From an uncultured Gammaproteobacteria bacterium (GTDB lineage: Bacteria > Patescibacteriota > Patescibacteriia > Magasanikbacterales > UBA922): DNA of 64,000 bases. Shown in pieces: positions 3,864-26,630 of this stretch. Both the position numbers and the translations under genes were made by a program. The stretch spans positions 676-64,675 of the forward strand of contig CAYSXR010000004.1 of assembly GCA_964435035.1 (NCBI GenBank). The letters are read 5' to 3'. Under the pieces are notes generated by a model that saw nothing but the letters and a program-made list of their open reading frames with translations, had not been told where the DNA came from and made no database searches. The stretch's first letter is position 1, and the number at the start of each line of letters is the position of its first letter.

Positions 3864-3931
3864 AGCGCCAATCAGCTCGATCGGCCATGTTCAAGCGTCC
3901 ATGCGAAGATCCGGTGCACCGTCTCTAGTCG

Positions 3932-4098: not shown

Positions 4099-4132
4099 AA
4101 GCACTGCTCTACCAAGAGTGGTGCTTTTATTT
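4099..4132 (+). terminator. Hairpin plus T-tract at the high-GC/low-GC junction
   Basis: AAGCAC-N16-GTGCTT followed by TTATTTG. Marks the end of the GC-rich segment. Confidence 0.4.
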
Positions 4133-4178
4133 GCAAAGAGTGCTCCTTTTTGAAGTTGGAATTTAAGGAAAATATCCA

Positions 4179-4207
4179 CTTGACACTTCCGTCTATATTT
4201 GGTATCC
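4179..4207 (+). promoter_or_regulatory. Sigma70-like promoter for rplJL
   Basis: TTGACA, a 17-nt spacer, then TATCCT. Followed by a roughly 140-nt leader before rplJ. Confidence 0.45.
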
Positions 4208-7715: not shown

Positions 7716-7720
7716 AGCTT

Positions 7721-7749
7721 TTGACACGATAATACCTACATAGTATACT
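7721..7749 (+). promoter_or_regulatory. Bidirectional promoter region with a shared palindromic -10
   Basis: + strand: TTGACA, 17 nt, TATACT. - strand: TTGCGA, 16 nt, TATACT. Both use the palindrome AGTATACT at 7742-7749. Confidence 0.5.
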
Positions 7750-7814
7750 ACAGACTGTCTATTTCGCAATAACGTATCCCTTTATTTTGCTTATATACAG
7801 ACGTTTTCAATTGT

Positions 7815-8414: not shown

Positions 8415-8445
8415 GATCGCTAGGGTTGATAAACTATAGAACTTC

Positions 8446-8554
8446 AAAATTATTCTAATTGTACTAATTGACCTAATTATTCTAATAAGAATTAGAAAGT
8501 GGCAGGGTTTTTAATCTGGGATTTTTAGAATAATTAGGGTAATTAGAATAATTG
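8446..8554. repeat. Family A iteron palindrome, copy A2
   Basis: Four left 9-mers (AATTATTCT, AATTGTACT, AATTGACCT, AATTATTCT), a 40-nt spacer, then right arm AGAATAATT, AGGGTAATT, AGAATAATT, ending 12 nt before the ATG at 8566. Confidence 0.7.
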
Positions 8555-8565
8555 TATTTTTGATT

Positions 8566-8955
8566 ATGTACTTGTTTATCGATCCTTCGAAACAAGACTC
8601 AATTCGATTAGTACTTTTTTTACATGACACTTCTCGTGAACATGTATTTGATGTACGAAATAGAGAACTTCTCTCAGTTATTGTTGAAATGCTTGAGCGG
8701 GAACATGTGCCACTTGCACATATTCGAGGAATTGTTGTTCTAGTGGGGGAAGGTAGGTTTTCAAGTACTCGGATTGCTAGTGTAGTTGGAAATACATTAT
8801 CGTATGCACTACATATTCCGGTTGTTGCAACCACTCGAGGTAATGAGCCGACTGGCGCGACTATTGATACCTTCTTTACTGCGTCAGGTATATTATATTA
8901 TATTACACCGACATATAGTGGTGAACCACATATTGGTGTGCGCGGACCTTCCTAG
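8566..8955 (+). CDS. TsaB/YeaZ-like protein (truncated Kae1-partner domain)
   Basis: GEGRFSSTRIASVVGNTLSYALHIPVV resembles TsaB GPGSFTGVRIGV..A.GLA..L..P. Only about 130 aa. Confidence 0.4.
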   Translation: MYLFIDPSKQDSIRLVLFLHDTSREHVFDVRNRELLSVIVEMLEREHVPLAHIRGIVVLVGEGRFSSTRIASVVGNTLSYALHIPVVATTRGNEPTGATIDTFFTASGILYYITPTYSGEPHIGVRGPS

Positions 8956-8961
8956 AAATTT

Positions 8962-10446
8962 ATGCTTTCTCCTTACCAACGTTACCGTTTATATGAAATG
9001 CTTCCAGGCATTTCTATCTGGGGTACTCTCATTCTCGCGGTTGTTTTTTCGTTTCTATATCCGCTTGCAATGATTTATTTTATCATTATTTTTGATATCT
9101 ATTGGGTGCTCAAAGTATTTAATTTTTCTTTTTATTTAATCGTATCATGGATTAGATATCGTAAAGTACAGCGGATCGACTGGAAAGACGCACTCCAACA
9201 TGATATTCCTGATGCAACACGCTTACGTCATGTAGTTTTTTTGACTGTCTTTAATGAAACGTGGGATGTGGTTGAGGGTGCGGTCGCTAGTGTGGCTGCT
9301 TCTGTGTACAATCCATCGTTGTTTACTCTGGTTATTGCAGGAGAAGAGCGTCAAGCAGAGCATTGTAAAGAACTTTTTCAAAAAATAGAAGCTCGTTTTC
9401 TTGATGTATTTGACCATATTGCTTTTACTCTTCATCCAAGCAGCCTCCCTGATGAAATTCCAGGAAAAGGTTCAAATTTGCATTATGCTGAAGGTGAAAT
9501 GAAGAAATATATTGATGCACATGGCTGGAAATATGAAGAGGTGATTATCACCGTATTTGATATTGATACCGTGTGTCATTCTAATTATTTTGCGTATTTG
9601 GCATATACCTATGCTACTCATCCAAACCCAACAAAGAGCTCATATCAGCCGATTGCACTCTATAACAATAACATGTGGGAGTCGCCATCAGTGTTGCGTA
9701 TTATGGCGTTTGGTACCACATTCTGGATGATGATGTCTCTCGCTCGTCAAGATTCGCTTGTCACCTTTTCTTCACATTCAATGAGCTTCAAAGCATTAGT
9801 TGATGCAGGATTTCATGATAAACGTATCGTAAGTGAGGATTCGCGAATTTTTTATCAATGTTTGCTTGCTTACAACGGTAAGTATGAGGTAACTCCATTG
9901 TATATTCCCGTATCAATGGATACAGTCCGGGATACTTCCTGGTGGCAGAGTATTCGAAATCTCTATCGTCAGCAGCGCCGTTGGGCATGGGGAGTAGAAC
10001 ATGTGCCATTTTTATTGTGGGAGTTTAGAAAAAAAGGAAAATTGATACCATGGTATACTAAATTTAAATGGCTTTTTATTGAATGGGAAGGTAAATGGTC
10101 ATGGTGTCTTGCAGCTCTCCTTATCACCATTCTTGGAAGATTTCCACTGTGGGTAGCTAGTCCTAGTATTAGACAGAGTGCACTGTATTTCAATGCGCCA
10201 CATCTGCTTGAAATTCTTATGACTGCTGCTATGAGTGGGCTTATTCTTTCTGCAATGCTTAGTTTACCCCTCCTTCCCCCTCGACCACAATCGCATCCAC
10301 GATATCGATATGTAATCATGGTATTGCAGTGGATTTTATTACCGGTTTCAATGCTTTTTGTTGCAGCAGCTCCAGGGATCGATGCAGTGACACATTTGAT
10401 GCGTGGTAAATATTTAGGATTTAATATTTCTCAAAAAAAACGCTAG
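8962..10446 (+). CDS. Membrane glycosyltransferase, GT2 family (processive, cellulose/chitin-synthase-like)
   Basis: Multiple TM helices, DxD-like region FDIDTV, and the Q(Q/R)xRW motif YRQQRRWAWG. Confidence 0.7.
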   Translation: MLSPYQRYRLYEMLPGISIWGTLILAVVFSFLYPLAMIYFIIIFDIYWVLKVFNFSFYLIVSWIRYRKVQRIDWKDALQHDIPDATRLRHVVFLTVFNETWDVVEGAVASVAASVYNPSLFTLVIAGEERQAEHCKELFQKIEARFLDVFDHIAFTLHPSSLPDEIPGKGSNLHYAEGEMKKYIDAHGWKYEEVIITVFDIDTVCHSNYFAYLAYTYATHPNPTKSSYQPIALYNNNMWESPSVLRIMAFGTTFWMMMSLARQDSLVTFSSHSMSFKALVDAGFHDKRIVSEDSRIFYQCLLAYNGKYEVTPLYIPVSMDTVRDTSWWQSIRNLYRQQRRWAWGVEHVPFLLWEFRKKGKLIPWYTKFKWLFIEWEGKWSWCLAALLITILGRFPLWVASPSIRQSALYFNAPHLLEILMTAAMSGLILSAMLSLPLLPPRPQSHPRYRYVIMVLQWILLPVSMLFVAAAPGIDAVTHLMRGKYLGFNISQKKR

Positions 10447-10450
10447 GTAT

Positions 10451-11935
10451 ATGTTTATACAAGCTACATCTCGAGAAAAGAAAAAAAAGAAATTACCCTA
10501 TATTCTATTAAGTATTTTTTTGTTATTAGTATTATGTAGTCTCGCAGTATATTACGTCATTCGACATGTTGGAATTGAAGGATTTCTTTCATCTTCTTTT
10601 GTGCAGCAGCAAATTAGTAAACATGTTGGTGGGGATGAGGGTGATATTTTTGAGCTTTTGCCGATCGCGCTTGGTTTCGATGAACCAAAAACATACCTAG
10701 TGTTATTTTTAAATAATACAGAGATGCGTCCGGGCGGGGGATTTATTGGTGTGTATGGTACTGTTCGTGTTACGGGGGGGCATGTTGAGGTTTTGAAAGT
10801 TGAAGGAACTGAAATATTAGATAATCAATCTTCACATGTTAATGTGCCTGTTCCTCCAAGTCCTTTGTCTCAGTATCTGAAAGTTTCAGGGTGGTATTTC
10901 AGAGACAGTAACTGGTCTCCTGATTTTGCTGAGAGCTCAAAACAGGGGTTGGCACTGTATACTCGAGAGAATGGAGTTGCGTCGGGAGACATTGATGCAG
11001 TTATTGGAGTGACTGCTACGGTGCTTGAAGAACTTATGAAAAAAACTGGACCGATTACGATTAATGGAATTACGTTTACTCCAGAAAATGTAGTAGCTGA
11101 GCTTGAGCATGAGGTTGAATATAAATTTATTGATCGAGGAATTTCTCGAGGAGATCGTAAAGATATTATTGAGCCTTTTATGCTTGCTATGATTGATAAG
11201 TTGAAAAGTGATGTATTGCGTCATCCTTTTGAATATCGTGCACTCGCTGAAAAATTATTACAAGAAAAGCATGTTGTCGCATACGCACTTGATTCAAACA
11301 TTCAAAATACGTTACATGAACATTCAGCAGATGGAAGTATTGCAGATACGACTGGCGATTATCTCATGTGGGTGGATGCCAATCTTGGTGCATTAAAAAC
11401 TGATCATGCGATTACACGTACACTTTCTTATACTATACAACCAGAAGTGTCTCCAACAGGGGATCGGTATTATGAAGCGACTGCGACGATGAAGTATATA
11501 CACTCGCAGCCTTTTGACTGGAGAACGTCGCGATACCGTACGTACGCACGAGTGTTTGTGCCTGAAGGCTCTGAACTGATTTCTTTTCGTGTAAGTAAAG
11601 GGCAACAGGTCCCCCCATATCTAGCTCAGAGTGGAGAAGAGCTTGGAAAAAAATGGTTTGGAACTTTTGTTACTATAGAACCGCTTGGAGTTGAAACACT
11701 CACCTTCACCTATCGTTTGCCCAACTCCATCGCTCAGCAGATTGATCAAAAAATGTATACGTTACATGTACAAAAACAAATCGGCCTTGTGGGCGCTTCA
11801 TTGACGCTCGACCTTGATTTTGATACAACTATCCAAGCAGCAGAACCTCCTGAAATGCAATCTGAGTGGGGGGATGGTGTGTATCGGTTCGAAACCCGGT
11901 TTGATCGAGATTGGGAGTTTGAAGTACGGATGTAG
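10451..11935 (+). CDS. Membrane-anchored DUF4012-like protein, commonly adjacent to glycosyltransferases
   Basis: N-terminal TM; LVLFLNNTEMRPGGGFIGVYG motif. Confidence 0.45.
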   Translation: MFIQATSREKKKKKLPYILLSIFLLLVLCSLAVYYVIRHVGIEGFLSSSFVQQQISKHVGGDEGDIFELLPIALGFDEPKTYLVLFLNNTEMRPGGGFIGVYGTVRVTGGHVEVLKVEGTEILDNQSSHVNVPVPPSPLSQYLKVSGWYFRDSNWSPDFAESSKQGLALYTRENGVASGDIDAVIGVTATVLEELMKKTGPITINGITFTPENVVAELEHEVEYKFIDRGISRGDRKDIIEPFMLAMIDKLKSDVLRHPFEYRALAEKLLQEKHVVAYALDSNIQNTLHEHSADGSIADTTGDYLMWVDANLGALKTDHAITRTLSYTIQPEVSPTGDRYYEATATMKYIHSQPFDWRTSRYRTYARVFVPEGSELISFRVSKGQQVPPYLAQSGEELGKKWFGTFVTIEPLGVETLTFTYRLPNSIAQQIDQKMYTLHVQKQIGLVGASLTLDLDFDTTIQAAEPPEMQSEWGDGVYRFETRFDRDWEFEVRM

Positions 11936-11997
11936 TTATAATTTTAAAAGAGATAAGATTTATTGTTTTCTAGTAAAAGAGTAAAAAGTTGGTTTTT

Positions 11998-12030
11998 ACC
12001 AGATAACTAGCAAACCAGTAAACTAGATAA
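11998..12030 (-). repeat. Family E 8-bp periodic CTRGTT repeat, copy E1 in reverse orientation
   Basis: Reverse complement reads ATCTAGTT-TACTGGTT-TGCTAGTT-ATCTGGT. Lies immediately upstream of mreB. Confidence 0.5.
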
Positions 12031-12039
12031 CGAGCTATT

Positions 12040-13041
12040 ATGCGTAAAGTAGGAATCGATCTTGGTACCACAAATATTCTAGTGTATATTCCCAAACGAG
12101 GGATCGTGGTAAACGAGCCCTCTGTTGTTGCTATTTCAAAAGAAGATCGAAGAGTACTGGCAGTAGGTGCAGAAGCAAAAGAAATGATTGGACGCACTCC
12201 TGATACTATTATTGCTGAACGTCCGCTGAAAGATGGGGTTATTGCGAGTTATAAAACTACAGAAGCGATGCTTCGATATTTTATTAATAAGGCGTTGGGA
12301 GGAATTCGTTTGTTTCGTCCCGAAGTGATGGTGGCAGTACCTGCGGGGATTACATCAACCGAGAGAAGAGCGGTAATTGATGCGGCTATGGCAGCTGGCG
12401 CAAAAGCAGCCTATATTATTAAAGAACCTATTGTTGCTGCAATCGGTGCTGATATTCCTATTGGTTCTCCATCGGGTCACATGATTATTGATATTGGTGG
12501 AGGAACTGCTGAAATTGCGGTTATTTCATTGGGAGGAATTGTATCAGTCGGATCGGTGCGCATTGGTGGAAATAGGTTTGATTTGTCAATTGCTGAATTT
12601 ATACGCAGAAAATATGGATTAGCTATTGGAGAGCAGAGTGCTGAAGAAGTGAAAATCCAGATTGGAAGTGCTATGTTTATGGATACTCCTCTTACTATGG
12701 ATGTAAAGGGAAGAGACATGGTTACTGGTCTCCCACGCACGGTCACGGTCACGTCTGATGATACTACTGAAGCATTACAGCATGATTTAGAAGGGCTTAT
12801 TGAGGCAGTCAAAGAAGTATTGAATCGTACTCCTCCTGAACTTTCTGCTGATGTGATGAATAAAGGTATTATTATGTCTGGAGGGTCAAGTTTACTCCGA
12901 AATCTTGATGAGCTTATTGCTCAGGCAATTGGTGTTGCAGCATATGTGGCTGAAGAGCCATTGCTTTGTGTTGCAAAAGGTACAGGTATTGCGCTTGAAA
13001 ATCTTGATAATTACAAACGATCAATTGTTTCGACGAGGTAA
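12040..13041 (+). CDS. mreB: Rod shape-determining protein MreB
   Basis: GIDLGTTN..., DIGGGTAEIAV, actin-fold ATPase motifs. Confidence 0.9.
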   Translation: MRKVGIDLGTTNILVYIPKRGIVVNEPSVVAISKEDRRVLAVGAEAKEMIGRTPDTIIAERPLKDGVIASYKTTEAMLRYFINKALGGIRLFRPEVMVAVPAGITSTERRAVIDAAMAAGAKAAYIIKEPIVAAIGADIPIGSPSGHMIIDIGGGTAEIAVISLGGIVSVGSVRIGGNRFDLSIAEFIRRKYGLAIGEQSAEEVKIQIGSAMFMDTPLTMDVKGRDMVTGLPRTVTVTSDDTTEALQHDLEGLIEAVKEVLNRTPPELSADVMNKGIIMSGGSSLLRNLDELIAQAIGVAAYVAEEPLLCVAKGTGIALENLDNYKRSIVSTR

Positions 13042-15229: not shown

Positions 15230-16315
15230 ATGAAACGATCGCTTTCATCCATTTTTCTTTTATTCATCGTTATTATCTTAAGCGGACAAGCTTGTGTTGT
15301 TTTTGGGAGTAAGAAAAATACCGCACTAGGTCCTGCAGGAGTGTGGGTTACTACAAAGAATGGTGAATCATGGACACAAATTGTGTCAGTTCCTACAGCT
15401 GAAGGGGTAGTACAGGTTCCACAGGCCGAGGTATATAAGCTTATTGATGACCCCCAAGATGCTCATGCACTTTATTGGGCATCACGAGAAGATGGAATTT
15501 TTTATAGTTATGATGATGGTAGAACGTGGGCTCGTGCCGAAGCTCCGCTAAATACTGGATTTATATATAGTATCGCTGTACACCCTAAAGAAAAATGTAC
15601 TATTTATGCTTCGAATGGAAGGCAGGTTTTCAAAACACTCGACTGTATGCGTTCGTGGACTGAAGTATACCGAGAAAATCGTGCTGAATTTGTCGTAACT
15701 TCAGTTTCGATTAATCCGTTTAATCCTTTTGAAGTTTTTGCAGCAACAAGCGCGGGTGATTTGTATGAGAGTGCTGATGGAGGAAATTCATGGCAAGTGA
15801 ATACTCGACTTAATAGAACGGACATTCGTGAAGTGGTGTTTGACCGGAACAAGGAAGGAATTATGTATCTAGCAACCAGAGAAAATGGGTTGTATCGTAC
15901 GCGTGATGGGGGAACTACCTGGGAAAATCTCGCGCCTAATTTTAGGGAATATGCGGGTTCTTTACAGTTCCGTAGATTTATGGTATATCCTTCTAAAGCT
16001 GAGACTATTTTCTGGGTTTCAAAATATGGAATTCTAACGTCACGTAATTCTGGAGAAGAGTGGGAACCAATATCTTTGGTCACACCTCCAGGAAGCGTTG
16101 ATATCTATGGATTTTCGGTTAATCCAAATAATGACAAAGAAATGTATTACACAGGGAGTATTGGAGATCGCTCTACGTTTTACCGGAGTGTTGATGGTGG
16201 GGTGACCTGGGAAACACGTAAATTGCCTACAAAACAGACTCCCACGGCACTTCGTGTGCATCCTGAGCAAGATGGGTGGGTGTATCTCGGGTTTACGACG
16301 ATAATTAAAAAATAA
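15230..16315 (+). CDS. Secreted BNR/Asp-box repeat protein (sialidase-like beta-propeller)
   Basis: Signal peptide; five S-x-D-x-G-x-T-W Asp-box motifs (SYDDGRTW, SADGGNSW, TRDGGTTW, SRNSGEEW, SVDGGVTW). Confidence 0.7.
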   Translation: MKRSLSSIFLLFIVIILSGQACVVFGSKKNTALGPAGVWVTTKNGESWTQIVSVPTAEGVVQVPQAEVYKLIDDPQDAHALYWASREDGIFYSYDDGRTWARAEAPLNTGFIYSIAVHPKEKCTIYASNGRQVFKTLDCMRSWTEVYRENRAEFVVTSVSINPFNPFEVFAATSAGDLYESADGGNSWQVNTRLNRTDIREVVFDRNKEGIMYLATRENGLYRTRDGGTTWENLAPNFREYAGSLQFRRFMVYPSKAETIFWVSKYGILTSRNSGEEWEPISLVTPPGSVDIYGFSVNPNNDKEMYYTGSIGDRSTFYRSVDGGVTWETRKLPTKQTPTALRVHPEQDGWVYLGFTTIIKK

Positions 16316-17119: not shown

Positions 17120-18484
17120 ATGTCACTTATTGATATAAAAAATTTATCCGTTGGATATTTTCTTGGCAAAAGTAATGAAGTCAAGGCGCTTAGTGATGTG
17201 AGTTTGAAAATCGAGCGCGGTGAATTTATTATTTTTTTTGGTGCTTCTGGTTGCGGAAAATCAACATTGCTTTATACGATAGCAGGACTGGAACGACCTA
17301 CGGGTGGTGAAGTGCTGGTTACTGGTGTGAATTTGGCGGATATGAAAAATAAAGAACTTGAGTATTACCGTCAGCACACCATTGGCATGGTATTTCAAGC
17401 ATTTCATCTTATTCCCTCACTTTCTATTGTCAAAAATATCATGTTACCCCAAATTGCGATTGGGGGTGATCCAAAAAAACGACGAGAAGAAGCTGAAAGA
17501 TTGATGAAGTATTTCGGTGTGTATGAACAGCGCAATAAAGTGCCTAATGAATTATCTGGTGGACAACAGCAGCGTGTGGCGATTTGTCGTTCATTGATTA
17601 ATGATCCAGAAATTATTTTTGCGGATGAACCGGTAGGTAATCTGGACTCAAAGTCTGCTCACGATGTGTTGGGTTTGATACAAGAATTAAACATAAAAGA
17701 TAAAAAAACGGTTATTTTGGTTACACATGATCCATCACATTTGGATATTGCTGATCGGGTTTTTTTTATGAAGGATGGAAAAGTTATTGATACTAAAGTA
17801 AACAAAGAGACTAGAAAAATTACGGTTGAAAAATCTGGTGAACCAGCGAAAAAGACTAATCTGGAACTTGTATCAAAAACACTTGCCACCTCAGAACACA
17901 TGGGAATTGGTGGATTGTTTCTTGAATATAAGGTCAAGGAGATTGTTTCTGATGCGCTTACAGGGCTTACGATTGAAGAGGTAACAGGTATTGAGCATCG
18001 AGTATCAGAAATTTTAAAGAATAAATTAAGTGATTATCGTGATTTGGAAGATTACCTTGATCGTGAATATACGTTTGGTGGACTTGATTTGAATAAACGC
18101 ACTGCACATCGGTTGACTGATAATATACGTAGTGTGGTTGAGGAAATGAAAACACTAGTTGAAGCTTCTGCGTCTAGTAAGAAAGGTTTGAGCTATGTTG
18201 AAAAACTTCGTTTTAATTTACTTGATACTTTTGATGTCCATGTCTCTAGTACAGATATTGTCGAACGTATTGAAAGCATCATTCGTGAACGAGTAGAGGG
18301 TCGCACTGACCGTAAAGGCGTACAGGCATTATTTGATACATCAGTGGTGGATGGTGGTGCGGGGCTTGATCGCAGAGATGCAAAACGAATGTCAAAACAT
18401 CTCGAGTTATTATTGTTGACACGATATGATGGTCAAGTAAAAAACGAAAAAGAAGATCATTCAAAATCAGAAAAGTCTAGTTAG
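17120..18484 (+). CDS. ABC transporter ATP-binding protein (MacB/LolD/FtsE-like) with a roughly 220-aa C-terminal extension of unknown function
   Basis: Walker [11 protein letters not shown]-loop, signature LSGGQQQRV, Walker B IIFADEP, H-loop VTHD. Long C-terminal tail. Confidence 0.85.
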
Positions 18485-18485: not shown

Positions 18486-19772
18486 ATGACTATAAACTTA
18501 GTAGAAAAAAAATCTGTATCTGCACAGAAAGAAGACAAGAAACAACATATTTCACGACGGATGGTAGTGAAAGATATTTTGTCACTTTCGACACGTACCT
18601 TTAAGACTCGGCCGATGCGTACCGCACTTACGATTCTTGGTATGAGTGTAGGTATTGGTGCGGTATTATTTTTGGTTTCCTTGGGCTATGGTTTACAAGA
18701 AACAGTCTTGAATCGTATTACAAATGCGGATGCGTTACTTAGTTTGGATGTAAGTGCGGGGCAGTCTGAGCTCATTAAACTAGATCGTGCAAATTTGGAT
18801 AAAATGGCACAATTGCCCAATGTTGAAGAAGTAAGTCCAATTACTGCAATTTCTTCTCAGATTACACTTAAAGATTTGACTGGGATTGTGACGCTCTATT
18901 CAGTGAAACCTTCTTTTTTTCGTCTGAGCGGTATTTTGCCGTTTAAAGGAAAGCTATTTGAGGCCACTCAATCAGGAGAAGCTCAGCGAGAAATAGTGGT
19001 TTCTTCAGCCCTTGCAACTATTTTTAATCTGGATCCTGATTCTATTGTCGGAGAAAAAGTTTCTATTACAGCTTTTGTATCGAGGCTTGATGAAACAGGG
19101 AACGAAGTAGTGAGCACTACTATCATCAGTGATCCATTTGTGATTGTTGGGGTAGTTCAGGATGATAAGGAAAGTTTTATGTATGCACCTGAGAGTTTAC
19201 TACAGGATATACATGTAGAAACATATATTGGTGCAAAGATAAAAGTGACTTCTCCTGAGGTAATGGGTGCTATTCGTGACCAGGTTATTGATATGGGCTT
19301 CTTTGTTTCTGCATTACAAGATACTATTGACCAGGTTAAAAAGATTTTTGCGATTGTTCAGATAGTGTTGGGTTTATTTGGACTTGTTGCTCTAATTGTA
19401 TCGGCGATTGGAATGTTTAATACTATGACCGTACTTCTTATGGAACGTACGAATGAAATTGGTATTATGCGCTCAATTGGGGTTACGAGAAATGATGTAC
19501 GAAAACTTTTTATGGTTGAGGCTATGGTGATGGGTTTTTTGGGAGGATTAGGTGGAGTTGCATTGGGACATCTGGGTGGTGTATTGGCTAATTTTGGCAT
19601 CAATTTACTTGCAAAGAATTTTGGAGGACAAGCACTTAGCTTATTTAGTCGTCCAGCTTCGTTTATTGTGGGCATTATTATATTTTCTACTATCATTGGC
19701 TTTATAACTGGCATATTTCCAGCACAGCGTGCTGCAAAAATCAAGCCACTCGACGCATTACGGTACAAATAG
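18486..19772 (+). CDS. ABC transporter permease, FtsX/MacB type (periplasmic core domain plus 4 TM)
   Basis: N-terminal TM, large extracytoplasmic domain, C-terminal FtsX-like helices, terminal LDALRYK. Confidence 0.8.
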   Translation: MTINLVEKKSVSAQKEDKKQHISRRMVVKDILSLSTRTFKTRPMRTALTILGMSVGIGAVLFLVSLGYGLQETVLNRITNADALLSLDVSAGQSELIKLDRANLDKMAQLPNVEEVSPITAISSQITLKDLTGIVTLYSVKPSFFRLSGILPFKGKLFEATQSGEAQREIVVSSALATIFNLDPDSIVGEKVSITAFVSRLDETGNEVVSTTIISDPFVIVGVVQDDKESFMYAPESLLQDIHVETYIGAKIKVTSPEVMGAIRDQVIDMGFFVSALQDTIDQVKKIFAIVQIVLGLFGLVALIVSAIGMFNTMTVLLMERTNEIGIMRSIGVTRNDVRKLFMVEAMVMGFLGGLGGVALGHLGGVLANFGINLLAKNFGGQALSLFSRPASFIVGIIIFSTIIGFITGIFPAQRAAKIKPLDALRYK

Positions 19773-19798: not shown

Positions 19799-19836
19799 AA
19801 CTGTGGAATAACCCACAGTTTTTTTCTTTTTTTTAT
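19799..19836 (+). terminator. Rho-independent terminator
   Basis: AACTGTGG-aataac-CCACAGTT followed by TTTTTCTTTTTTTT. Confidence 0.8.
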
Positions 19837-19917
19837 CCCCATATTTAGCGTAATTTTTCTATTATAACATGAGAAAAAGTGGTATACTGTTGTCACGACT
19901 TCGTGTGATAGTTTTTT

Positions 19918-22900
19918 ATGGTGAAATTTAAGAAAAATAAGCAGAAGTTAGTGAAATCACAATCACGTAATTCTAACAGCAAATGGGATTTTGCTGCTTA
20001 TTGGGTTTGGCATGAATTGTTATTATCATATGGTAGACTTCGTAAAACTACCAAAACTCGTACAGCAAAAAAAGAACTTAATGCTCTTGGTAAACAAATC
20101 ATGCGTCATTATGTAAAAAACTTTGTTTATTTTCCTGTTTGGCTTTTTAAATTTCTTACGCCTTCATATCTTAAAGGTCCAGTAAATGTATGGACCAATT
20201 TACGTACCATTCTCCGAAGTTCTGAATTTCGTCCTCTTCGACTCGCGGTGGTTTCACAGGCAGTCTTTTGTTTTGTTTTTATTAGGTTGGGAATGCTTAT
20301 TTTTTATAACCTTTCAACTCCAGCTGATGCTGCTACGTTTGGATGGATACAGACTACGTGGACTGGGGGAGTCTCGACTACTGTTGCAGCTACGCATTCG
20401 AGTGATCGAACTGGCTGGACGACATATGCGAGTTCTACTCAAGTGAACACTACTGTTTCATCTGGAAATATTACTATTGCAACTTCATCATACATAACGA
20501 CAGATGATAGCACACTTAGTACTGATGGTCTTGCAAGTGGTGGTGGATTTGCAAATGGTGTCACCTCTAGCGTGGTAGTGAACGGCGGAGATGTTACTCT
20601 AGGTATTGCATCTGCTGGTGGAGAAATTAATCAGTGGGATGCTACTCCATATAATCTTCCTGCTACTATTAGTGGTACCGAAGATGGTAATGGAGTTATG
20701 GTGACTGATGGCGTTGATGCTTTTTATATCCTTCGTGGGGGTGGAACGACTGGGTTTTATAAATTTATTCCTTCTGATAAAACAACGAGCACTCTTACCT
20801 CTGTGCCTACCTCTATACCTCCCAATGGGGGTGGGGGAACGGTTGCGTTGTCTGGTGATTATATTTATCTGTATTCTGGAGGTAATAGTAATGTTAAATT
20901 TTACGCATATTCGATTTTGGGGAATTCATGGACTACTCTTACTAATCCGCCTAGTTCACCTTATGGTGACGGTATTGGTAGTACCATGGCTGTTGATGCT
21001 TCAGGAAATATTTATTTTGCAGCAGGTGGAGCAACAACAAATTTTTTAAAGTATACCGTAACTTCAAGTGCTCCGTATGGGGCATGGAGTGTGTTGTCTA
21101 GTATTGGAAATTCTGTGGGAAGAGGCTCTCGAGCAATATATGATAGTGAGAATAATGATATCCTTATCCTTACAGGTAATAATGGTCATACCATAAGTAA
21201 GTACGATATTGATTTAGGTACGATGACTAATTATGCTGGTGCTCCTAATGACCCTGGATTTACGTCGGGTGCTTCGATGGTAAAAAATGATGACAACGAT
21301 ATTGTATATGCAATTACCGGTCAAAACTATGCATGGCTTGAGAGATTGAATTTGAATAGTGGCACATGGGCATCAAGACAAACTTCTTCAACACCTGCTG
21401 CAGGAAATACAGTGGGGTATATGATACATAAACCTGGAGAAAACAGGATTTATACCACATTTGGAGGAACTAGTTTTTACTATTTACGACCACAACAAGG
21501 GGATTGGCAGTTCACTACCACGACTAAGCCAATTCCTGGATCAATCGGTGCGGGTGCTACCATGATTCGTCACAATAATGATGAAATTTATGTATTGGCT
21601 GGGGGAGGGAGTAGTGCTATTTATCGTTTTGCTATTAATGCGGGTACTCAATATACAGCTACAGGTACACTTACTTCTGCAACAATTGATCTTAAATATG
21701 CAACTTCTACTCGGATTTCATGGTCCTCGAGTGCGCATGGTCAGACTGGGTCAAATCCAGTAAAGTTTCAAGTTGCCGCAAATACGGATAATGCTACCTG
21801 GAGCTATGTAGGTCCTGATGGAACTTCAGGAACGTACTTTACTAGTTCTAATACTGCATTGCCTGGATCATTGAATGGAAAAAGATATTATCGATATCGA
21901 GCCTATTTAACTACTGCAAATACTTCATTTACTCCTACACTTAGTAGTGTTACTTTTACGTATCATAGTTATTTGACTTCTGGTTCACTCGCGTCAAATC
22001 CTTTTAATGCTGAAGATGACACTAATGTGCTCGCTGCGGTTTCGTGGGCGGGAAGTGTTCCGGCGGGTACCGTGATTAAATTCCAAGTGCGTACTAGTCC
22101 TGATAATGCAGTCTTCACTTCATGGATGGGTCCGGATGGAACTTCTGGTACGTATTTTACTGACAGTAGTGGTGCGCAAACGATGCCTGCTCTGTTGACC
22201 GATGGGGAAGATGATCGTTGGATTCAGTATAAAGTATTTTTTGAATCTGATGGAACAGGAACTCCGATTCTTGAACAAAGTACACTTACGTATGTAGTGA
22301 ATGCACCTCCGGAGATTACTATTACGAATACGGTTTCTACTACTTCCAGTGGTGTTGTAGTGGTGAATTATGACGTGCGTGATATTGATAGTGCAACGGG
22401 TGCTACGCCTGGTGTGGTTGCTGTTGCGCTTCAGTATTGTACGGCGAGTTGTTCAAGTGTGGGGAATGAGGTGTGGGCTACAGCAGTAACTTCAAGTTTG
22501 TCTGGTACGTTTGGTTCGAGCGTTGCAGTGGATACTGTTTCGACTACTCAATATACAAGTTATTCATTGACTTGGACTCCCACTAGTTCTTATAATAACC
22601 AGTATAATGGATCGAATTTTAAAATCCGTCTTCGTGCGAATGATTCTGAGGCGGCAAATAATATCGGGGTTGATGAGTCCAATACTTTTGTATTGGATAC
22701 TACTGATCCTTTACCTTCAATTATTATTGATGGGAGAAGTATTGCGACCAGTACACTTTCGATTAGCGTTACTGATGATACAATGGCAGGATTAGAAATG
22801 AAATTATCAAACGACAGTGACCTATCTTCGGATGGATTAAATGGAAGTTCGGGTACGTGGATTCCGTATACAACAACCTCGACGTGGAATTTGGGTACTG

Positions 22901-25900
22901 GAGGAACAACGGTCTATTACCAGGTTAGGGATGCATTTGGAAATATCTCTGCAAATGGTATTATCTCATCTGCAGAGACTCCTGAAATTCCTGGAAATTT
23001 ATTTTTTAAAGATATTTCGAACTCTGATACTTTGGAATGGCGAGAATTTATTGCATGGCAAATTATTGATGATCCGACTCCTGGATTTGCACAATACGCA
23101 ATTTATCGTTCAAGCGATGGTATTAATTATACTGAAATTGCTACTCAAGTATCACGTATTATTAATTATTATCTTGATACTGATATTGATACAGGAACGG
23201 TTTATTATTATAAAGTTACTTCAGAAGATAGCGATGGTAATATTTCGGCATTTTCGACTATTGTATCTGATAATCCGAATGGAACGGGAGGAACTGATGT
23301 GTCTGCGCCGACTATTTCCAATGTTACGACGAGTTCGATTGGTTCAAATTCAATTACGATTACCTGGGAGACTGATGAAGTTTCTGATTCGTATATTGAT
23401 TATACGACTGAAGAGGGAAGTGACTTTAGTAATGTGGATACGGTAGGTCTGACGACGATGCGAAATAATGCTGCAGGACTCGGTATTCATATAGTTTCTC
23501 TCACGAATCTTGCACCAAACACGACATATTATTTCCGTGTACGATCTCTCGATCCTGATGGTAATGAGGGAATTGGCACGCAAGCTCCTAATGGATACGT
23601 ATACACGACGCTCACTGGACCGATTATTTCAGATGTTTCAACTGCTGAAATTCGAAATACTCAGGCAACAGTTACATGGAGTACTGATCAGGATAGTGAT
23701 TCGTATGTAGTTTTTTCTACCTCTTCAAGTTTTACTGCGTCTTCGACTGTAGGTTCACCTCTCACTGTGTCATCGCATGAGGTAGTTCTGCCTTCGCTTC
23801 TTCCGGGGACTACGTATTATTATTATGTTCAATCTGGGCAAGTAACTGATAAGAATACTATCGAAGGGCAGCATGAATATTATACGTTTGAAACCACTGC
23901 GGATATTACGGCTCCAGTAATTACGTTTGATTCTGGGGGAGACGTGGTTGTGTCTGATACTTCATTGGTAATTACTTTTAGCACCAACGAGACTGCAACT
24001 TCTACGATTAATTATGGTACGAGTCTTTCATATGGGTCTGTGATCGCTAATAATAATCTTAATTCTGACCACCGTTACGTATTTACTGGACTTCTTCCAG
24101 GTACTGCATACTATCTGAGTATGCGTGTTGCGGATGTTGATGGAAATATATCAAGCGCCCTTCAATTTAGTGTTACTACTACTGATAGTGCAGATTATAC
24201 TCCGCCTATCATTACGAACGTAACTTCGAGTGTGGTGACTGATGATGAAGCACTTATACTCTGGTCAACTGATGAGGGCGCTACTGGAAAAGTGTATTAT
24301 GGTACGACGAGCACGGTATACACTGAATCAAGTGATTTAGTTTCAACTTACAATCGTGAACATTTTATGACTCTCAGTGGGTTGACTACTTCAACAGAGT
24401 ATTTTTATGTAGTTGTATCAGCTGATGTAAGTGGAAATAGTAGTACTTCAACTGAGTATTCATTTACCACTCTCGAAGAATTATCTGAAGAAAGCGAAGT
24501 GCGATTGCGTGAAGAAACTGCGTACGCACAAGGGCTCGCCGATGGTACTCCACCACCAGATTTTGTGGCACCAATCATTTCGAATGTTACTTCGACGGTG
24601 GTGACTGATGATGAGGCTCTTATTATCTGGTCGACTGATGAGGGTACAACGGGACGGGTTCATTATGGTACCACTCCTTCAACGTATACTGAATCAAGTG
24701 ATTTAGTTGCTACATTTAATAGTGCGCATGCAATTACCCTTCATAATCTTACTACTTCTACGCAATATTATTTTGTTGTAGTGTCTGCTGATTCTAGTGC
24801 AAATACTTCTACTTCTGGCGAATATACGTTTACCACACTTGAAACACTCTCAGAAGAAAGTGAAGTGTTGCTTCGTGAAGAGGCTGCTCGAGCAGAGGGT
24901 GTAGTACAAGGGTCTGCAACAGTACCATCAAGTGGTGGGGGAGGAAGTTCTGTTGATCGAACACCTCCTATTATTTCTGATGTGTTGGTGAACAATATCG
25001 CCTCTGATTCTGCTACGATCAAGTGGAATACGAATGAAAATGCTAATACATTGGTAGAATTTGGAAAGACCATTGAATATGGTCGAGGCTCACTCGATCT
25101 TGAAAATGTACAAGTACATACGATTGATTTGGTTGAATTACTTCCTCTCACTACTTATTTTTATCGAATAAGCTCAATTGATACTACAGGTAATCGAAGT
25201 AGCCCAGTAACCGGATCGTTTACCACTGTTTCACTCGCTGAAGAAATTGCATCAAGTACCGAAAATATTATTGAAGATATTGCAGCAGACGAAAAAAATA
25301 CTGATGCTGCAGAGGAATTGTTTCTCTCTACTATCGAAAAAGCTGGACAAATTATCAAGAGTCTCGCTGGTCGTGTGAGTGTTGGTGTACTTGAGACATC
25401 ATTACTTGCTCAGGCACAGATTATCGAACAATTGTCTGACATTTTGCCATTACCTATTATCGGTGGACAGCCTGTAGTTGATGCAGGATCGAATTATGCT
25501 ACAGTTTCGTGGAGTACTGATAAAAATGCAAATTCATTGGTTGAGTTTGCGCCTGAAGGAGAGTTTTTGTCTGATAAGACCTATGATCAGACGGTAGGAG
25601 AGCCTACGGCTTCCCGAACTGGGCATGTGGTTGAAGTGAAAGGATTGCTTCCTGATACGGTATATCATTATCGTGTGGTTTCTCGTACACAAACGGGATC
25701 TGAAACAAAGTCTCAAGATTTTGTATTTAGAACGAAATCTCAAACTAACGAAATTACGAATTACAATGTAGTTGTTCTCTCTCCTGAAGAAGTTTCTTTT
25801 TCTTGGAATACCACGGTACCTACCGATTCTGCAGTTGTGTACACACCTTATCGAAATGGGGTACCTCAGATTGAGGCACGGCAAGTAGTACGACAAGCTG

Positions 25901-26424
25901 GACTCACTACACAGCATTCTCTTAAGGCTGTAGGATTTGAAGCAGGTGTTCTCTATGATGTTGAATTGCTTGGTACTGACACAGGAAACAATGTATCGAG
26001 TAAGGTAATTAAAGGCTTTACTACCGAAGGAGAGGATCTTGTGCCAGTGATTTCCCAGATACAGACTGATGCGGCGATTGTACCTGGAGGGAAAGAAAAG
26101 ATTCAAATTATTATTTCATGGCAGACCAATGAATTATCAACGAGTAGATTATTTTATCGTAAAGGATTTGCTGCTGATGGTACTCAATTTACCGCAAGCA
26201 CTACTCTTGATCAAAATTATACAAAAAAACATGTGGTGGTGGTTACGAATTTTGAACCGGGTACCGTCTACCAATTTGTGGTTGAGAGTATTGATTCAAG
26301 TGGTAATACAGGTATTTCAAAAACAATTACTATCCTCACTCCTCAAAAAGAACAATCAGTGTTTCAAGTCATTTTTAGTAACGTAGAAGATATGTTCTCG
26401 TGGGTCGGTAAACTTAGAAATTAG
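19918..26424 (+). CDS. Giant (2168 aa) cell-surface protein with an N-terminal TM anchor, beta-propeller-like repeats and many fibronectin-III / purple-acid-phosphatase-N-like domains
   Basis: Single 6.5-kb ORF. TM segment LAVVSQAVFCFVFIRLGMLIF. Repeated I(T/S)W(E/S)TDE...YY(F/Y)RV FN3-like units. Internal near-identical tandem repeats. Confidence 0.8.
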   Translation: MVKFKKNKQKLVKSQSRNSNSKWDFAAYWVWHELLLSYGRLRKTTKTRTAKKELNALGKQIMRHYVKNFVYFPVWLFKFLTPSYLKGPVNVWTNLRTILRSSEFRPLRLAVVSQAVFCFVFIRLGMLIFYNLSTPADAATFGWIQTTWTGGVSTTVAATHSSDRTGWTTYASSTQVNTTVSSGNITIATSSYITTDDSTLSTDGLASGGGFANGVTSSVVVNGGDVTLGIASAGGEINQWDATPYNLPATISGTEDGNGVMVTDGVDAFYILRGGGTTGFYKFIPSDKTTSTLTSVPTSIPPNGGGGTVALSGDYIYLYSGGNSNVKFYAYSILGNSWTTLTNPPSSPYGDGIGSTMAVDASGNIYFAAGGATTNFLKYTVTSSAPYGAWSVLSSIGNSVGRGSRAIYDSENNDILILTGNNGHTISKYDIDLGTMTNYAGAPNDPGFTSGASMVKNDDNDIVYAITGQNYAWLERLNLNSGTWASRQTSSTPAAGNTVGYMIHKPGENRIYTTFGGTSFYYLRPQQGDWQFTTTTKPIPGSIGAGATMIRHNNDEIYVLAGGGSSAIYRFAINAGTQYTATGTLTSATIDLKYATSTRISWSSSAHGQTGSNPVKFQVAANTDNATWSYVGPDGTSGTYFTSSNTALPGSLNGKRYYRYRAYLTTANTSFTPTLSSVTFTYHSYLTSGSLASNPFNAEDDTNVLAAVSWAGSVPAGTVIKFQVRTSPDNAVFTSWMGPDGTSGTYFTDSSGAQTMPALLTDGEDDRWIQYKVFFESDGTGTPILEQSTLTYVVNAPPEITITNTVSTTSSGVVVVNYDVRDIDSATGATPGVVAVALQYCTASCSSVGNEVWATAVTSSLSGTFGSSVAVDTVSTTQYTSYSLTWTPTSSYNNQYNGSNFKIRLRANDSEAANNIGVDESNTFVLDTTDPLPSIIIDGRSIATSTLSISVTDDTMAGLEMKLSNDSDLSSDGLNGSSGTWIPYTTTSTWNLGTGGTTVYYQVRDAFGNISANGIISSAETPEIPGNLFFKDISNSDTLEWREFIAWQIIDDPTPGFAQYAIYRSSDGINYTEIATQVSRIINYYLDTDIDTGTVYYYKVTSEDSDGNISAFSTIVSDNPNGTGGTDVSAPTISNVTTSSIGSNSITITWETDEVSDSYIDYTTEEGSDFSNVDTVGLTTMRNNAAGLGIHIVSLTNLAPNTTYYFRVRSLDPDGNEGIGTQAPNGYVYTTLTGPIISDVSTAEIRNTQATVTWSTDQDSDSYVVFSTSSSFTASSTVGSPLTVSSHEVVLPSLLPGTTYYYYVQSGQVTDKNTIEGQHEYYTFETTADITAPVITFDSGGDVVVSDTSLVITFSTNETATSTINYGTSLSYGSVIANNNLNSDHRYVFTGLLPGTAYYLSMRVADVDGNISSALQFSVTTTDSADYTPPIITNVTSSVVTDDEALILWSTDEGATGKVYYGTTSTVYTESSDLVSTYNREHFMTLSGLTTSTEYFYVVVSADVSGNSSTSTEYSFTTLEELSEESEVRLREETAYAQGLADGTPPPDFVAPIISNVTSTVVTDDEALIIWSTDEGTTGRVHYGTTPSTYTESSDLVATFNSAHAITLHNLTTSTQYYFVVVSADSSANTSTSGEYTFTTLETLSEESEVLLREEAARAEGVVQGSATVPSSGGGGSSVDRTPPIISDVLVNNIASDSATIKWNTNENANTLVEFGKTIEYGRGSLDLENVQVHTIDLVELLPLTTYFYRISSIDTTGNRSSPVTGSFTTVSLAEEIASSTENIIEDIAADEKNTDAAEELFLSTIEKAGQIIKSLAGRVSVGVLETSLLAQAQIIEQLSDILPLPIIGGQPVVDAGSNYATVSWSTDKNANSLVEFAPEGEFLSDKTYDQTVGEPTASRTGHVVEVKGLLPDTVYHYRVVSRTQTGSETKSQDFVFRTKSQTNEITNYNVVVLSPEEVSFSWNTTVPTDSAVVYTPYRNGVPQIEARQVVRQAGLTTQHSLKAVGFEAGVLYDVELLGTDTGNNVSSKVIKGFTTEGEDLVPVISQIQTDAAIVPGGKEKIQIIISWQTNELSTSRLFYRKGFAADGTQFTASTTLDQNYTKKHVVVVTNFEPGTVYQFVVESIDSSGNTGISKTITILTPQKEQSVFQVIFSNVEDMFSWVGKLRN
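24193..24890 (+). repeat. Tandem duplication of two roughly 366-bp units (about 80% identical) inside the giant protein gene
   Basis: PPIITNVTSSVVTDDEALILWSTDEG...SEESEVRLREE versus APIISNVTSTVVTDDEALIIWSTDEG...SEESEVLLREE. Confidence 0.8.
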
Positions 26425-26448: not shown

Positions 26449-26478
26449 TTGACAAAATGCCCTAGTTTTACGTATACT
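26449..26478 (+). promoter_or_regulatory. Promoter of glyS
   Basis: TTGACA, 18 nt, TATACT. Confidence 0.55.
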
Positions 26479-26630
26479 ATCTTTCGATAAGCTGGGGTAA
26501 TGATAAGAGGTGGCTCTCTTTGAACTTTTGGCTTATATTACATAAAAAAGTGTCCCGACTTAGTCGGGAAACTTGGGTGGAACCCCCGGTCGAATGGCTG
26601 GGCCCAAGACCATTAGAGTGGTCTTTTTTT
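26479..26630 (+). promoter_or_regulatory. Probable T-box riboswitch leader (glycine-specific) with an intrinsic terminator
   Basis: T-box-like AACTTGGGTGGAACCCCCGG (consensus AGGGUGGNACCGCGG) followed by terminator AAGACCA-ttagag-TGGTCTTTTTTT. A GGC triplet lies in the upstream loop region. Positioned before a glycyl-tRNA ligase gene. Confidence 0.5.

Follow-up and report, generated by a model that had tools for sequence, protein, structure and literature searches.

A large family of giant repeat proteins in Patescibacteria and its frequent linkage to a MacB-type ABC pair

Introduction

Giant surface proteins rich in fibronectin type III (FN3) domains are already known from candidate phyla radiation (CPR) genomes, and a giant protein with an internal repeat, as first described for the locus analysed here, is ordinary among them. 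Giant proteins with FN3 or immunoglobulin (Ig) repeats have been listed as host-interaction candidates, e.g., in Absconditicoccaceae (PMC13059738), and FN3/VCBS surface proteins are essential in Southlakia epibionticum (PMC10633639). The locus studied here lies in a window of 64,000 nucleotides (the whole stretch of contig CAYSXR010000004.1, assembly GCA_964435035.1, that was analysed), which carries one such gene on its forward strand at 19918..26424 and raises the question of what a protein of this size does at the cell envelope and with which partner it does so. The case for an exported surface fibre that is functionally coupled to the ATP-binding cassette (ABC) ATPase and permease encoded next to it appears slightly stronger than the case against it. 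We infer cleavage, surface location, ABC coupling and any adhesive role from sequence, the coupling from gene linkage only. A sequence-only reading of the same DNA had described the giant protein and missed the family-wide linkage to a MacB-type ABC pair.

According to the list of open reading frames (ORFs) and the translation, the gene runs from an ATG start through zero internal stops to a stop codon at 26422-26424 and encodes 2168 aa with a mass of 232.6 kDa; the portion beyond the predicted cleavage site comprises 2030 aa and has an isoelectric point of 4.26. The single 6.5-kb gene of the sequence-only reading is therefore intact, and an identical protein is on record at NCBI. The closest homolog (88% identity, 2166 aa) is annotated as 'fibronectin type III domain-containing protein [Candidatus Magasanikbacteria bacterium]', and several related loci also bear the label Candidatus Magasanikbacteria (Patescibacteria/Parcubacteria group), which agrees with the earlier assignment of the DNA to a CPR bacterium. 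Interruption in other assemblies had been named as a possible refutation; full-length, uninterrupted ORFs occur in at least eight of them (among these, ORFs of 2166, 2055, 2048, 2046, 2045 and 2285 aa and that of locus L009). The order of genes around the giant gene is MreB, GT4 glycosyltransferase, DNA polymerase III delta', a BNR/sortilin-like propeller protein, ribosome recycling factor (RRF), ABC ATPase, MacB-type permease, the giant protein, glycyl-tRNA synthetase (GlyRS), M16 peptidase and triosephosphate isomerase (TIM); the flanking genes are housekeeping genes. Outside its first 4 kb, the window has a G+C content of ~38%.

A giant-protein family defined by its termini and core

Family profiles were built from an alignment of close and mid-distance homologs that includes the window protein (alignment A1) and were run on 85 loci from the species-representative genome collection, with the N-terminal motif serving as a search pattern. 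Five modules persist across loci of Magasanik-, Morani-, Wolfe-, Buchanan-, Doudna-, Yonath- and Saccharibacteria, namely a hydrophobic helix with the motif that follows it (NTM), a pair of 'SAND' domains, a pair of 'IG' domains, three C-terminal FN3-like domains (CT3) and a C-terminal tail (TAIL). In distant Patescibacteria loci, the core profile matches at 1e-31 to 1e-120 and the CT3 profile at 1e-41 to 1e-148, the CT3 domains being conserved throughout the family. The basic N-terminal region, the beta-propeller and a helical insert, on the other hand, are the variable modules. A search of 1.84 billion representatives of clusters at 50% identity with the core profile yielded 3463 proteins at E <= 1e-10, of which 824 reach E <= 1e-30. 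The top 150 matches all have scores of 387 bits or more, and most of them cover essentially the whole profile. Among 146 new representatives (median length 1922 aa), the N-terminal module is present in 102, the tail in 98 and both in 78, and the family modules were recovered in 78-138 of the 146 as well as in independent distant loci. The window protein carries every family-defining module: a signal peptide followed by A-T-[YF]-x-W-x-Q-[TS]-x-W, the core, CT3 and the C-terminal tail LTP...NFE..F.W. Judged by these profiles, the group forms one large and coherent family that has not yet been given a name. Its specific modules are covered neither by Pfam nor by NCBIfam models; the giant protein belongs to no NCBIfam family, its N-terminal 248 aa have no Pfam match at E <= 10, and its core (aa 560-1035) has none in Pfam at the same threshold and only chance-level matches in a sequence search of the PDB.

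In the predicted mature part of the protein, a Thr/Ser-rich stretch is followed by a Kelch-like beta-propeller of ~6-7 blades at aa 240-575 (20635..21642, +), modelled by AlphaFold2 with four-strand blades at a pLDDT of ~70-93. Foldseek comparison with the PDB returned Kelch domains and the seven-bladed PLL/PHL lectins (E 7e-11 to 1e-8), the top Kelch matches being ESP, LZTR1, KLHL2 and Keap1 (E 7e-11 to 1e-9). The Pfam Kelch_6 match stays below its cut-off (20.9 against 25.3 bits), with Kelch_4, Kelch_1 and Kelch_3 weaker, and clear Kelch repeats are found at the homologous position of the homolog P0007; the beta-propeller proposed earlier is thus confirmed by the model and its structural matches, with only sub-threshold Pfam support. 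Across the family, this module varies, being Kelch-like in the window, of RCC1 type in P0011 and P0017 and absent elsewhere, and its profile (PROP) matches 32 of the 146 representatives.

The propeller is followed by the four-sandwich family core at aa 580-1030 (21655..23007, +), delimited by AlphaFold2 and profiles, in which two ~106-aa 'SAND' sandwiches with a GPDGT-x-TYF motif precede two Ig-like 'IG' domains. The model shows four consecutive beta-sandwiches of Ig/FN3-like type (mean pLDDT 81.3), and the best Foldseek matches in the PDB are to arrays of tandem FN3 domains, to SiiE, a giant adhesin, and to GhpA, a grappling-hook protein (E ~1e-5). An array of seven FN3-like domains then occupies aa 1031-1770 (23008..25227, +; self-seeded phmmer and Pfam), with phmmer envelopes at 1031-1118, 1129-1231, 1233-1324, 1331-1421, 1428-1518, 1550-1640 and 1682-1770. 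The array is broken by a conserved helical insert of ~75 aa ending in LPLPIIGGQP (aa 1771-1845, 25228..25452, +; A1 consensus), which is confined to the closer clades and whose profile (HELIX) matches near-clade and a few other loci as well as 22 of the 146 representatives, and beyond it lie the three CT3 domains (aa 1846-2141, 25453..26340, +; phmmer, Pfam and profiles). In all, the self-seeded search finds ten FN3-like units between aa 1031 and 2141. Pfam Pur_ac_phosph_N matches eight stretches (E 5.9e-47, 158.6 bits, cut-off 30), fn3 five (90.1 bits, cut-off 25) and PhoD_N reaches 49.2 bits. With multiple domains above the Pfam gathering thresholds, the protein belongs to the FN3-type repeat proteins, and the earlier mention of FN3 and purple-acid-phosphatase-N-like domains is upheld by both searches. 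Phosphatase identity was considered and rejected, as the Pur_ac_phosph_N and PhoD_N matches cover only the FN3-like N-domains of those enzymes; the Pfam scans found no catalytic domain, with no Metallophos or PhoD catalytic match.

The protein ends in a conserved tail, PQKEQSVFQVIFSNVEDMFSWVGKLRN (aa 2142-2168, 26341..26421, +), for which an alignment of 38 loci gives the motif LTP-x3-4-E-S-V-x2-V-I-x2-N-F-E-x2-F-x-W and which terminates 0-3 residues from the C-terminus in 96 of 98 tail-bearing representatives. The tail forms an amphipathic helix with a hydrophobic moment of ~1.5-1.7 and, because its mean hydropathy is below 0.8, is not transmembrane. No C-terminal LPXTG was found, the sole LP.[TSA][GAN] match being internal (aa 1393), nor was a second hydrophobic segment. 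The domain map accounts for nearly every residue outside the low-confidence Thr/Ser-rich aa 139-239, and it supports a giant, non-enzymatic, extracytoplasmic repeat protein of propeller and FN3-like modules, in agreement with the surface protein of propeller-like repeats and FN3-like domains in the sequence-only reading.

Several loci of the family show further peculiarities. Tandem pairs of family paralogs are frequent (L002/L008, 9965-16165 and 16247-23239; L007, L010, L011 and L013), and in L010 the ABC pair lies between two tandem giant paralogs, whereas the window genome has a single copy here. Four distant loci have a homolog that is divided at roughly the same point (L017, 5947-7173/7202-12286; L018, 3273-4493/4466-9028; L027, 169-1509/1513-7389; L036, 5743-7071/7071-11729) into a first ORF of 400-447 aa with the signal peptide and N-terminal module and a second of 1500-1950 aa with the core, FN3 array and tail. 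The halves are parted by a single in-frame stop in L027 and lie in different frames in L017, L018 and L036; a real two-gene architecture, frameshifting or recoding, or sequencing errors could each account for them. Finally, the contigs L009-L019, L022, L024, L025 and L074 are titled 'uncultured Gammaproteobacteria bacterium' despite Magasanikbacteria/Patescibacteria gene content and synteny with the window, so that the Gammaproteobacteria titles of these series of metagenome-assembled genomes appear to be a mislabel.

Linkage to a MacB-type ABC pair

Directly upstream of the giant gene, the window encodes an ABC ATPase of 454 aa (17120..18484, +; Pfam ABC_tran, 9.7e-34) and a MacB-type (Type VII) permease of 428 aa (18486..19772, +; MacB_PCD, 5.4e-22; FtsX, 1.8e-18). 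The permease combines a MacB_PCD extracytoplasmic domain with a C-terminal FtsX transmembrane module, and with all Pfam cut-offs exceeded the two genes represent a Type VII (MacB-superfamily) ABC system. The ATPase joins a LolD/MacB-like nucleotide-binding domain (aa 1-~234) to a ~220-aa C-terminal extension (aa 235-454, 17822..18481, +), which aligns across 19 long ATPases of diverse Patescibacteria and comprises two helical repeats with an invariant GG-x-GL...A motif at the end of each (G320, G321, A329, G413 and G415 invariant). The best NCBIfam matches of the ATPase are LolD, MacB and DevA, all far below cut-off, and neither protein reaches a named equivalog in NCBIfam: for the ATPase, LolD scores 204 against 308, MacB 196 against 966 and FtsE 181 against 265; for the permease, lolCE scores 77 against 362 and the FtsX models 31-41 against 225-255.

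The whole neighbourhood is syntenic in close orthologs, and such synteny is uninformative alone about a link between the ABC pair and the giant gene. The informative loci are the distant ones. Searching the loci with the ATPase and permease sequences of the window revealed a same-strand ATPase and permease within 520 bp (usually 0-60 bp) of a family giant gene in 22 of 47 distinct loci, window counted, with identities to the ABC proteins of the window down to 27-50% and with the GlyRS synteny lost in distant loci. Three gene orders are represented: ATPase-permease-giant in the window, L018, L021, L028 and others; permease-ATPase-giant in L041, labelled Saccharibacteria; and giant-ATPase-permease in L016, L017, L019, L023, L027, L031, L033, L039, L062 and others. 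Such rearranged orders argue for a linkage that is maintained by selection. The same scan found the pair in 0 of 36 control loci with non-family FN3 proteins (Fisher p = 3e-7), and against a generous random-neighbour expectation the linkage has p ~1e-34, both values being calculated irrespective of phylogenetic non-independence. The linked ATPases measure 415-460 aa and carry the extension in all but one locus with a complete ATPase gene. The exception is the Magasanikbacteria locus L004, in which a 40%-identical giant homolog (P0007, 2285 aa) lies beside another MacB-type system that has a short ATPase and two permeases.

Against a coupling of the giant protein to the pair stand several features of the same loci. 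About half of the family loci have no ABC pair in the available flanks, and L005, L029, L034, L035 and L050 lack it with ~6 kb available on both sides; the linkage is frequent, not obligatory. In the window, a terminator-like hairpin with a T-run (19799..19830, +; terminator scan and sequence) separates the permease and giant genes and thereby leaves co-transcription unsupported, and the giant gene probably has its own promoter in this genome; the sequence TGGTATACT near 19881-19889, read by eye and not found by the scan, resembles an extended -10 element. The loci were moreover collected starting from the giant protein, not from long-ATPase pairs, and the ATPase extension has no recognisable fold or function, with no match in Pfam (E <= 10) or in a sequence search of the PDB.

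The missing pairs and the hairpin could be taken to mean that the adjacency has no significance for the giant protein and that the pair is an ordinary syntenic exporter of the MacB type, e.g., for peptides or lipids. MacB-type pairs are indeed common in small genomes, and the window contains a second one at 51627-54860. Such an explanation nevertheless appears improbable, as the adjacency persists at 27-50% identity, in three gene orders, with other synteny lost and mostly with gaps of 0-60 bp, as the controls are devoid of it, and as the linked pair, wherever its ATPase gene is complete, is of the unusual long-ATPase type with the single exception of L004.

That second MacB-type system of the window consists of an ATPase of 241 aa (51627-52352) and two permeases (52375-53619 and 53631-54860) and sits, within 50152-55732, between the gene for CCA/poly(A) polymerase and YidC. 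The same gene string is found in L004 (1-11858), with P0007 inserted between the second permease and YidC. Two proposals for a physical correspondence between the giant protein and the pair were rejected. A pairing of the long N-terminal region with the long ATPase extension does not hold, because L017 and L018 have short signal peptides and yet adjacent long ATPases; L030, which also has a short signal peptide, has its ABC pair ~3 kb away, and L004 has the N-terminal region beside a short ATPase. Likewise, the helical insert (aa 1771-1845), considered as a universal docking site for the permease by analogy to the EnvC/PcsB coiled coil, is missing from most of the ABC-linked distant loci.

Export and the N-terminus

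The sequence-only reading had regarded the protein as N-terminally anchored. A single hydrophobic segment exists in the whole giant protein (Kyte-Doolittle values above 1.6 at aa 113-125 only), and it forms part of the sole hydrophobic helix, aa 107-131, which together with the c-region S-T-P-A-D-A (aa 133-138) makes up a putative signal-peptide h-/c-region (20236..20331, +). A putative signal peptidase I site likely lies after A138 (A136-D-A138 / A139). The predicted mature N-terminus, A-T-F-G-W-I-Q-T-T-W-T-G-G (aa 139-151), continues as a Thr/Ser-rich stretch to ~aa 239 (20332..20634, +; alignment A1 and AlphaFold2), which has no confident fold in the AlphaFold2 model (pLDDT 22-31 for aa 132-235). 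Residues A139, T140, Q145, W148 and G151 are invariant in alignment A1, and the motif is kept in all distant loci.

The proposed site was surveyed in 80 family proteins that have a starting Met and the motif T-[YF]-x-W-x-Q-x-x-W. All 80 satisfy the -3/-1 rule of signal peptidase I: position -1 is A in 46, G in 19, S in 12 and T in 3, position -3 is A, V, T, S, I or G throughout, and position -2 varies. A strongly hydrophobic stretch directly precedes the site in every one of them, and position +1 is Ala in 78. At the homologous place, L030 has a textbook signal peptide of ~35 aa, MRKFEKFLKK-TLSIILLVILVSSALF-ANPQTVEA|ATF. The window protein itself has the n-region, the h-region and the small -3/-1 residues of a Sec/signal peptidase I substrate, and a lipobox Cys at +1 is lacking in the giant protein according to the alignment and the 80-protein survey. 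Because of the uniform -3/-1 pattern and the existence of short signal peptides of the L030 type, cleavage is the likelier outcome: the hydrophobic helix is likely the h-region of a cleaved signal peptide, with the predicted mature chain starting at A139. Since the helix precedes the A-D-A|A-T-F site, permanent anchoring at the N-terminus has become doubtful.

What speaks against cleavage is the region in front of the helix, which in the window comprises aa 1-106 (19918..20235, +), is predicted to be helical and cytoplasmic, and contains 23 K/R against 4 D/E, with AlphaFold2 helices at 23-43, 48-67, 69-80 and 91-100 (pLDDT 55-69). Its sequence is kept in the closer clade only, the corresponding profile (CYT) matching near-clade loci and 9 of the 146 family representatives, and a long pre-helix region is found in most members (median 113 aa) and is conserved in the clade of the window protein. 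Among cleaved signal peptides, a conserved, helical N-terminal region of ~105 aa would be unusual; it is in keeping with a cytoplasmic domain attached to a signal-anchor.

This region is an argument for a different protein, in line with the anchored host-attachment candidate of the sequence-only reading: an uncleaved type II signal-anchor protein with a cytoplasmic domain, whose projecting FN3 array would serve as a host-attachment adhesin. The basic and helical N-terminus is well conserved among closer relatives, the candidates usually named for host contact in Patescibacteria are large FN3 surface proteins (PMC13059738), and some of the essential proteins of a cultivated Saccharibacterium are FN3 surface proteins (PMC10633639). 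Such an adhesin seems rather unlikely here. The -3/-1 pattern and the A-T-[YF] at +1 to +3, invariant in all 80 proteins, speak against it, as do the short signal peptides of some members; the propeller, the most plausible module for binding a ligand, would sit at the membrane with the FN3 array outward, the reverse of the usual adhesin layout; and the purifying selection on orthologs (dN/dS 0.06-0.19 in the duplicated units) and the housekeeping synteny are not what is usually seen in fast-evolving host-specificity factors.

A possible role at the envelope

The observations above are consistent with a non-enzymatic, fibrillar protein of ~2000 residues, acidic and Thr/Ser-rich, at the Magasanikbacteria cell envelope. 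It would most likely be exported via Sec, with the helix aa 107-131 as the h-region and the ~105-aa basic helical segment as the n-region, and signal peptidase I would most likely cut after A138 to expose an A-T-F-x-W-x-Q-T-x-W-x-G-G N-terminus. The mature chain would then consist of the Kelch-like propeller, ~14 beta-sandwich modules and the terminal amphipathic helix. An FN3 domain usually measures ~3.5-4 nm, which would give a fibre of roughly 50-60 nm if the chain were extended. The conservation of the termini and core and the variability of the propeller and array length suggest that the termini serve placement or attachment and that the middle serves as a spacer or binding surface.

In Type VII systems, ATP hydrolysis moves an extracytoplasmic domain without transport of a substrate across the membrane, and the moving domain either works on a dedicated partner or pulls hydrophobic moieties out of the outer leaflet, as exemplified by FtsEX-EnvC, LolCDE-LolA, MacAB-TolC and YbbAP-TesA (PMC5985334, PMC7668044, PMC12646458). 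By analogy, the ABC pair would most likely serve as a handling factor of the giant protein, which could extract or hand off its N-terminal hydrophobic segment or processed N-terminus; the invariant N-terminus next to a hydrophobic helix, the amphipathic C-terminal helix and the repeated adjacency would be in line with such a role. Alternatively, the pair may hold or actuate the giant fibre at the surface. Any single one of these sub-mechanisms has a much lower probability than the coupling in general. A bolder proposal, which we consider unlikely, is that the giant protein and the long-ATPase pair constitute one Patescibacteria-specific, ATP-driven envelope machine, in which the Type VII ABC system would extract, anchor or actuate the ~50-60 nm fibre via its N-terminus and/or C-terminal tail and the two-repeat extension of the ATPase would provide cytoplasmic control.

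A further possibility, less than evenly balanced and still to be taken seriously, is a conserved structural or organising component of the envelope (surface layer, sheath, spacer or scaffold), with the Type VII ABC pair as its assembly or remodelling factor, comparable perhaps to FtsEX governing wall hydrolases. Many Patescibacteria lineages share the termini and four-domain core of this very large family, neither a catalytic domain nor a binding domain of known specificity was detected, and the protein is under purifying selection, with the Magasanikbacteria gene standing among those for MreB, glycosyltransferase, delta', RRF, GlyRS and TIM. The variable propeller, the tandem paralogs (L002, L007, L010, L011 and L013) and the varying repeat number point in the opposite direction, as expected of diversifying binding proteins. 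Taken with the purifying selection and the housekeeping synteny, the conserved termini agree with a conserved role in the envelope no less than with host attachment: purifying selection and conserved termini favour the envelope component, whereas the variable propeller, paralogs and repeat number favour host binding.

Copy number of an FN3-plus-linker unit

Within the FN3 array, two adjacent units were considered in the sequence-only reading to be about 80% identical and to reflect recent expansion. The tandem duplication does exist, with a period of exactly 366 nt (122 aa) and one FN3 domain plus an acidic helical linker per unit: u1, with the linker LEELSEESEVRLREE..., spans aa 1425-1546 (24190..24555, +), and u2, with the linker LETLSEESEVLLREE..., spans aa 1547-1668 (24556..24921, +). 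The identity is lower than was claimed. Compared in register over the whole units, u1 and u2 are 68.6% identical in nucleotides and 67% in amino acids; the nucleotide figure is 74% in the best local alignment, of 313 columns, and 77% within the first 118 nt. Tandem Repeats Finder does not call the 366-nt repeat, its copies having diverged too far.

Nor is the duplication recent, or out of the ordinary. Between u1 and u2, dS is 1.31, i.e., saturated, with a dN/dS of 0.19. L001 (GCA_018061425) and L009, whose ortholog is 91% identical, share the two-copy structure, and the u1 copies of the window, L001 and L009 cluster together, as do their u2 copies. Orthologous copies differ at dS 0.4-0.8 with dN/dS 0.06-0.19, and identity between u2 of the window and its counterparts in L001 and L009 amounts to 89-91%. 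The saturated dS and the presence of both copies in three diverged assemblies indicate an old duplication; on this sequence evidence, it is old, fixed and under purifying selection, and it altered the length of the FN3 array. One copy of the unit is present in orthologs at a greater distance (L002, L003, L010 and L004), and the single unit of L010 finds its closest match in u1 of the window (77% aa). In L011, a 60%-identical ortholog (ORF 5899-12807), aa 1433-1805 hold three tandem copies that are 68-74% mutually identical and cluster together, which indicates an independent expansion; by this clustering, the number of FN3-plus-linker units has shifted at least twice within the clade. An import of u2 from a tandem paralog was also considered, since a neighbour-joining tree groups u2 with paralog units; the identities (62-74% to paralogs, 71-74% to orthologs) lend no consistent preference to the paralog over the ortholog.

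Repeat-rich genes are often mis-assembled in metagenome assemblies, and one homolog, P0040, is truncated at 624 aa, so that an assembly or annotation artefact behind the repeat or the long ORF has to be weighed; it can hardly be credited. The longest exact run common to u1 and u2 measures 21 nt, and no exact direct repeat elsewhere in the gene exceeds it. With so short a shared run, assembly collapse is of no concern, and at 69% identity an assembler could neither collapse the units nor create a false duplication. The two-copy structure recurs in two other assemblies, which together with the short run excludes the repeat as an assembly artefact, the long ORF is full-length in at least eight, and P0040 is flagged 'partial' by its source and ends with its contig.

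Comparison with known systems

The giant protein resembles the FN3 giants reported from Patescibacteria in its very large size, its N-terminal signal or transmembrane segment, its FN3-type repeats, its non-catalytic nature and its occurrence in a CPR genome. Unlike those, which are described by domain content only, the window family is delimited by its N-terminus, core, CT3 and tail, and by the ABC link. Neither the ABC linkage nor the signature of the family was found described in the open-access papers and preprints searched; the delimitation by termini and four-sandwich core, the family size and the linkage to a long-ATPase Type VII pair appear to be undescribed.

The neighbouring pair shares with known Type VII ABC systems a LolD/FtsE-like ATPase, a permease whose extracytoplasmic domain lies between transmembrane segments TM1 and TM2, an FtsX module and an adjacent secreted candidate partner. 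It differs in three respects. Known Type VII partners are a small adaptor or enzyme, whereas the candidate partner is a ~230-kDa repeat protein that is known as such from gene linkage only; the ATPase of the pair carries the ~220-aa extension with two GG-x-GL repeats; and both proteins score far below the NCBIfam cut-offs of the named systems.

With the adhesins of type 1 secretion systems (T1SS), such as SiiE, LapA and MpIBP, the giant protein has in common a chain of beta-sandwiches, a neighbouring ABC gene, a conserved extreme C-terminus and the SiiE-like core. In contrast to T1SS, which use an ABC_membrane fold, a membrane-fusion protein and an outer-membrane duct, the neighbour in the window is of the MacB_PCD/FtsX type, and unlike T1SS substrates, which have RTX/BIg repeats and no Sec signal, the giant protein has a Sec-type signal and no RTX/BIg match in Pfam. 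The protein and its neighbours accordingly lie outside the RTX/BIg giant adhesins of type 1 secretion, and the protein lacks the features of sortase-anchored LPXTG/MSCRAMM adhesins. The GhpA chain of Aureispira, a predatory bacterium, serves cell-cell contact. As a giant extracellular chain of Ig/FN3-like domains, it resembles the window protein (PDB 9fls and related; core match E 3e-5 to 4e-3), the match being a generic similarity of tandem beta-sandwiches (TM-score ~0.2-0.3, 11-15% identity) that does not imply hook assembly, export by a type 9 secretion system (T9SS) or predation.

The value of the locus lies in a very large family with sharply conserved ends that resemble processing or placement signals and in a recurrent MacB-type neighbour with an unusual ATPase. 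We know of no sortase-LPXTG, T1SS or T9SS route described for this giant family. If the linkage is functional, it would offer a handle on how ultra-small episymbiotic bacteria build their surface, and a giant fibre would join the short list of Type VII ABC partners. The bolder proposal of one ATP-driven machine would make the fibre a new class of such partners and would mean a new way of deploying surface proteins in bacteria without known adhesin-anchoring systems. Saccharibacteria are genetically tractable and have the same giant-ABC module at L041.

Other features of the window

The first part of the window differs from the remainder. Positions 1-4000, with ORFs at 24-737 and 741-3863, have a G+C content of 57-59% against ~38% for the genome, with a drop at ~4000-4200. 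The block encodes a DEAD/ResIII helicase of 1040 aa that matches Hachiman HamB (PADLOC, 1.2e-37), preceded by a 237-aa ORF that has no family match and may represent HamA. Either the block is a defence island that was acquired horizontally and lies at the window's edge, or it reflects a chimeric join.

The gap between the giant gene and GlyRS contains a strong promoter-like site, TTGACA-18-TATACT, at 26449-26478. It is followed at 26491-26609 by a reduced leader resembling a T-box, which scores 39.3 bits against RF00230 (E 1.9e-7) and so stays well short of the gathering score of 93, and at 26606-26625 by a terminator hairpin and T-run; the element at 26449-26625 would represent a CPR example of a small glycine T-box riboswitch. 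At 15230-16315, the window encodes a BNR/sortilin-Vps10-like propeller protein of 361 aa, which occupies the same position, between delta' and RRF, in related Magasanikbacteria loci. Upstream of mreB, at 8962-11935, lie the genes for a GT2-type glycosyltransferase and, after it, a DUF4012 protein, each of 494 aa; the two genes are syntenic in L002 and L003 and may represent an envelope polysaccharide module.

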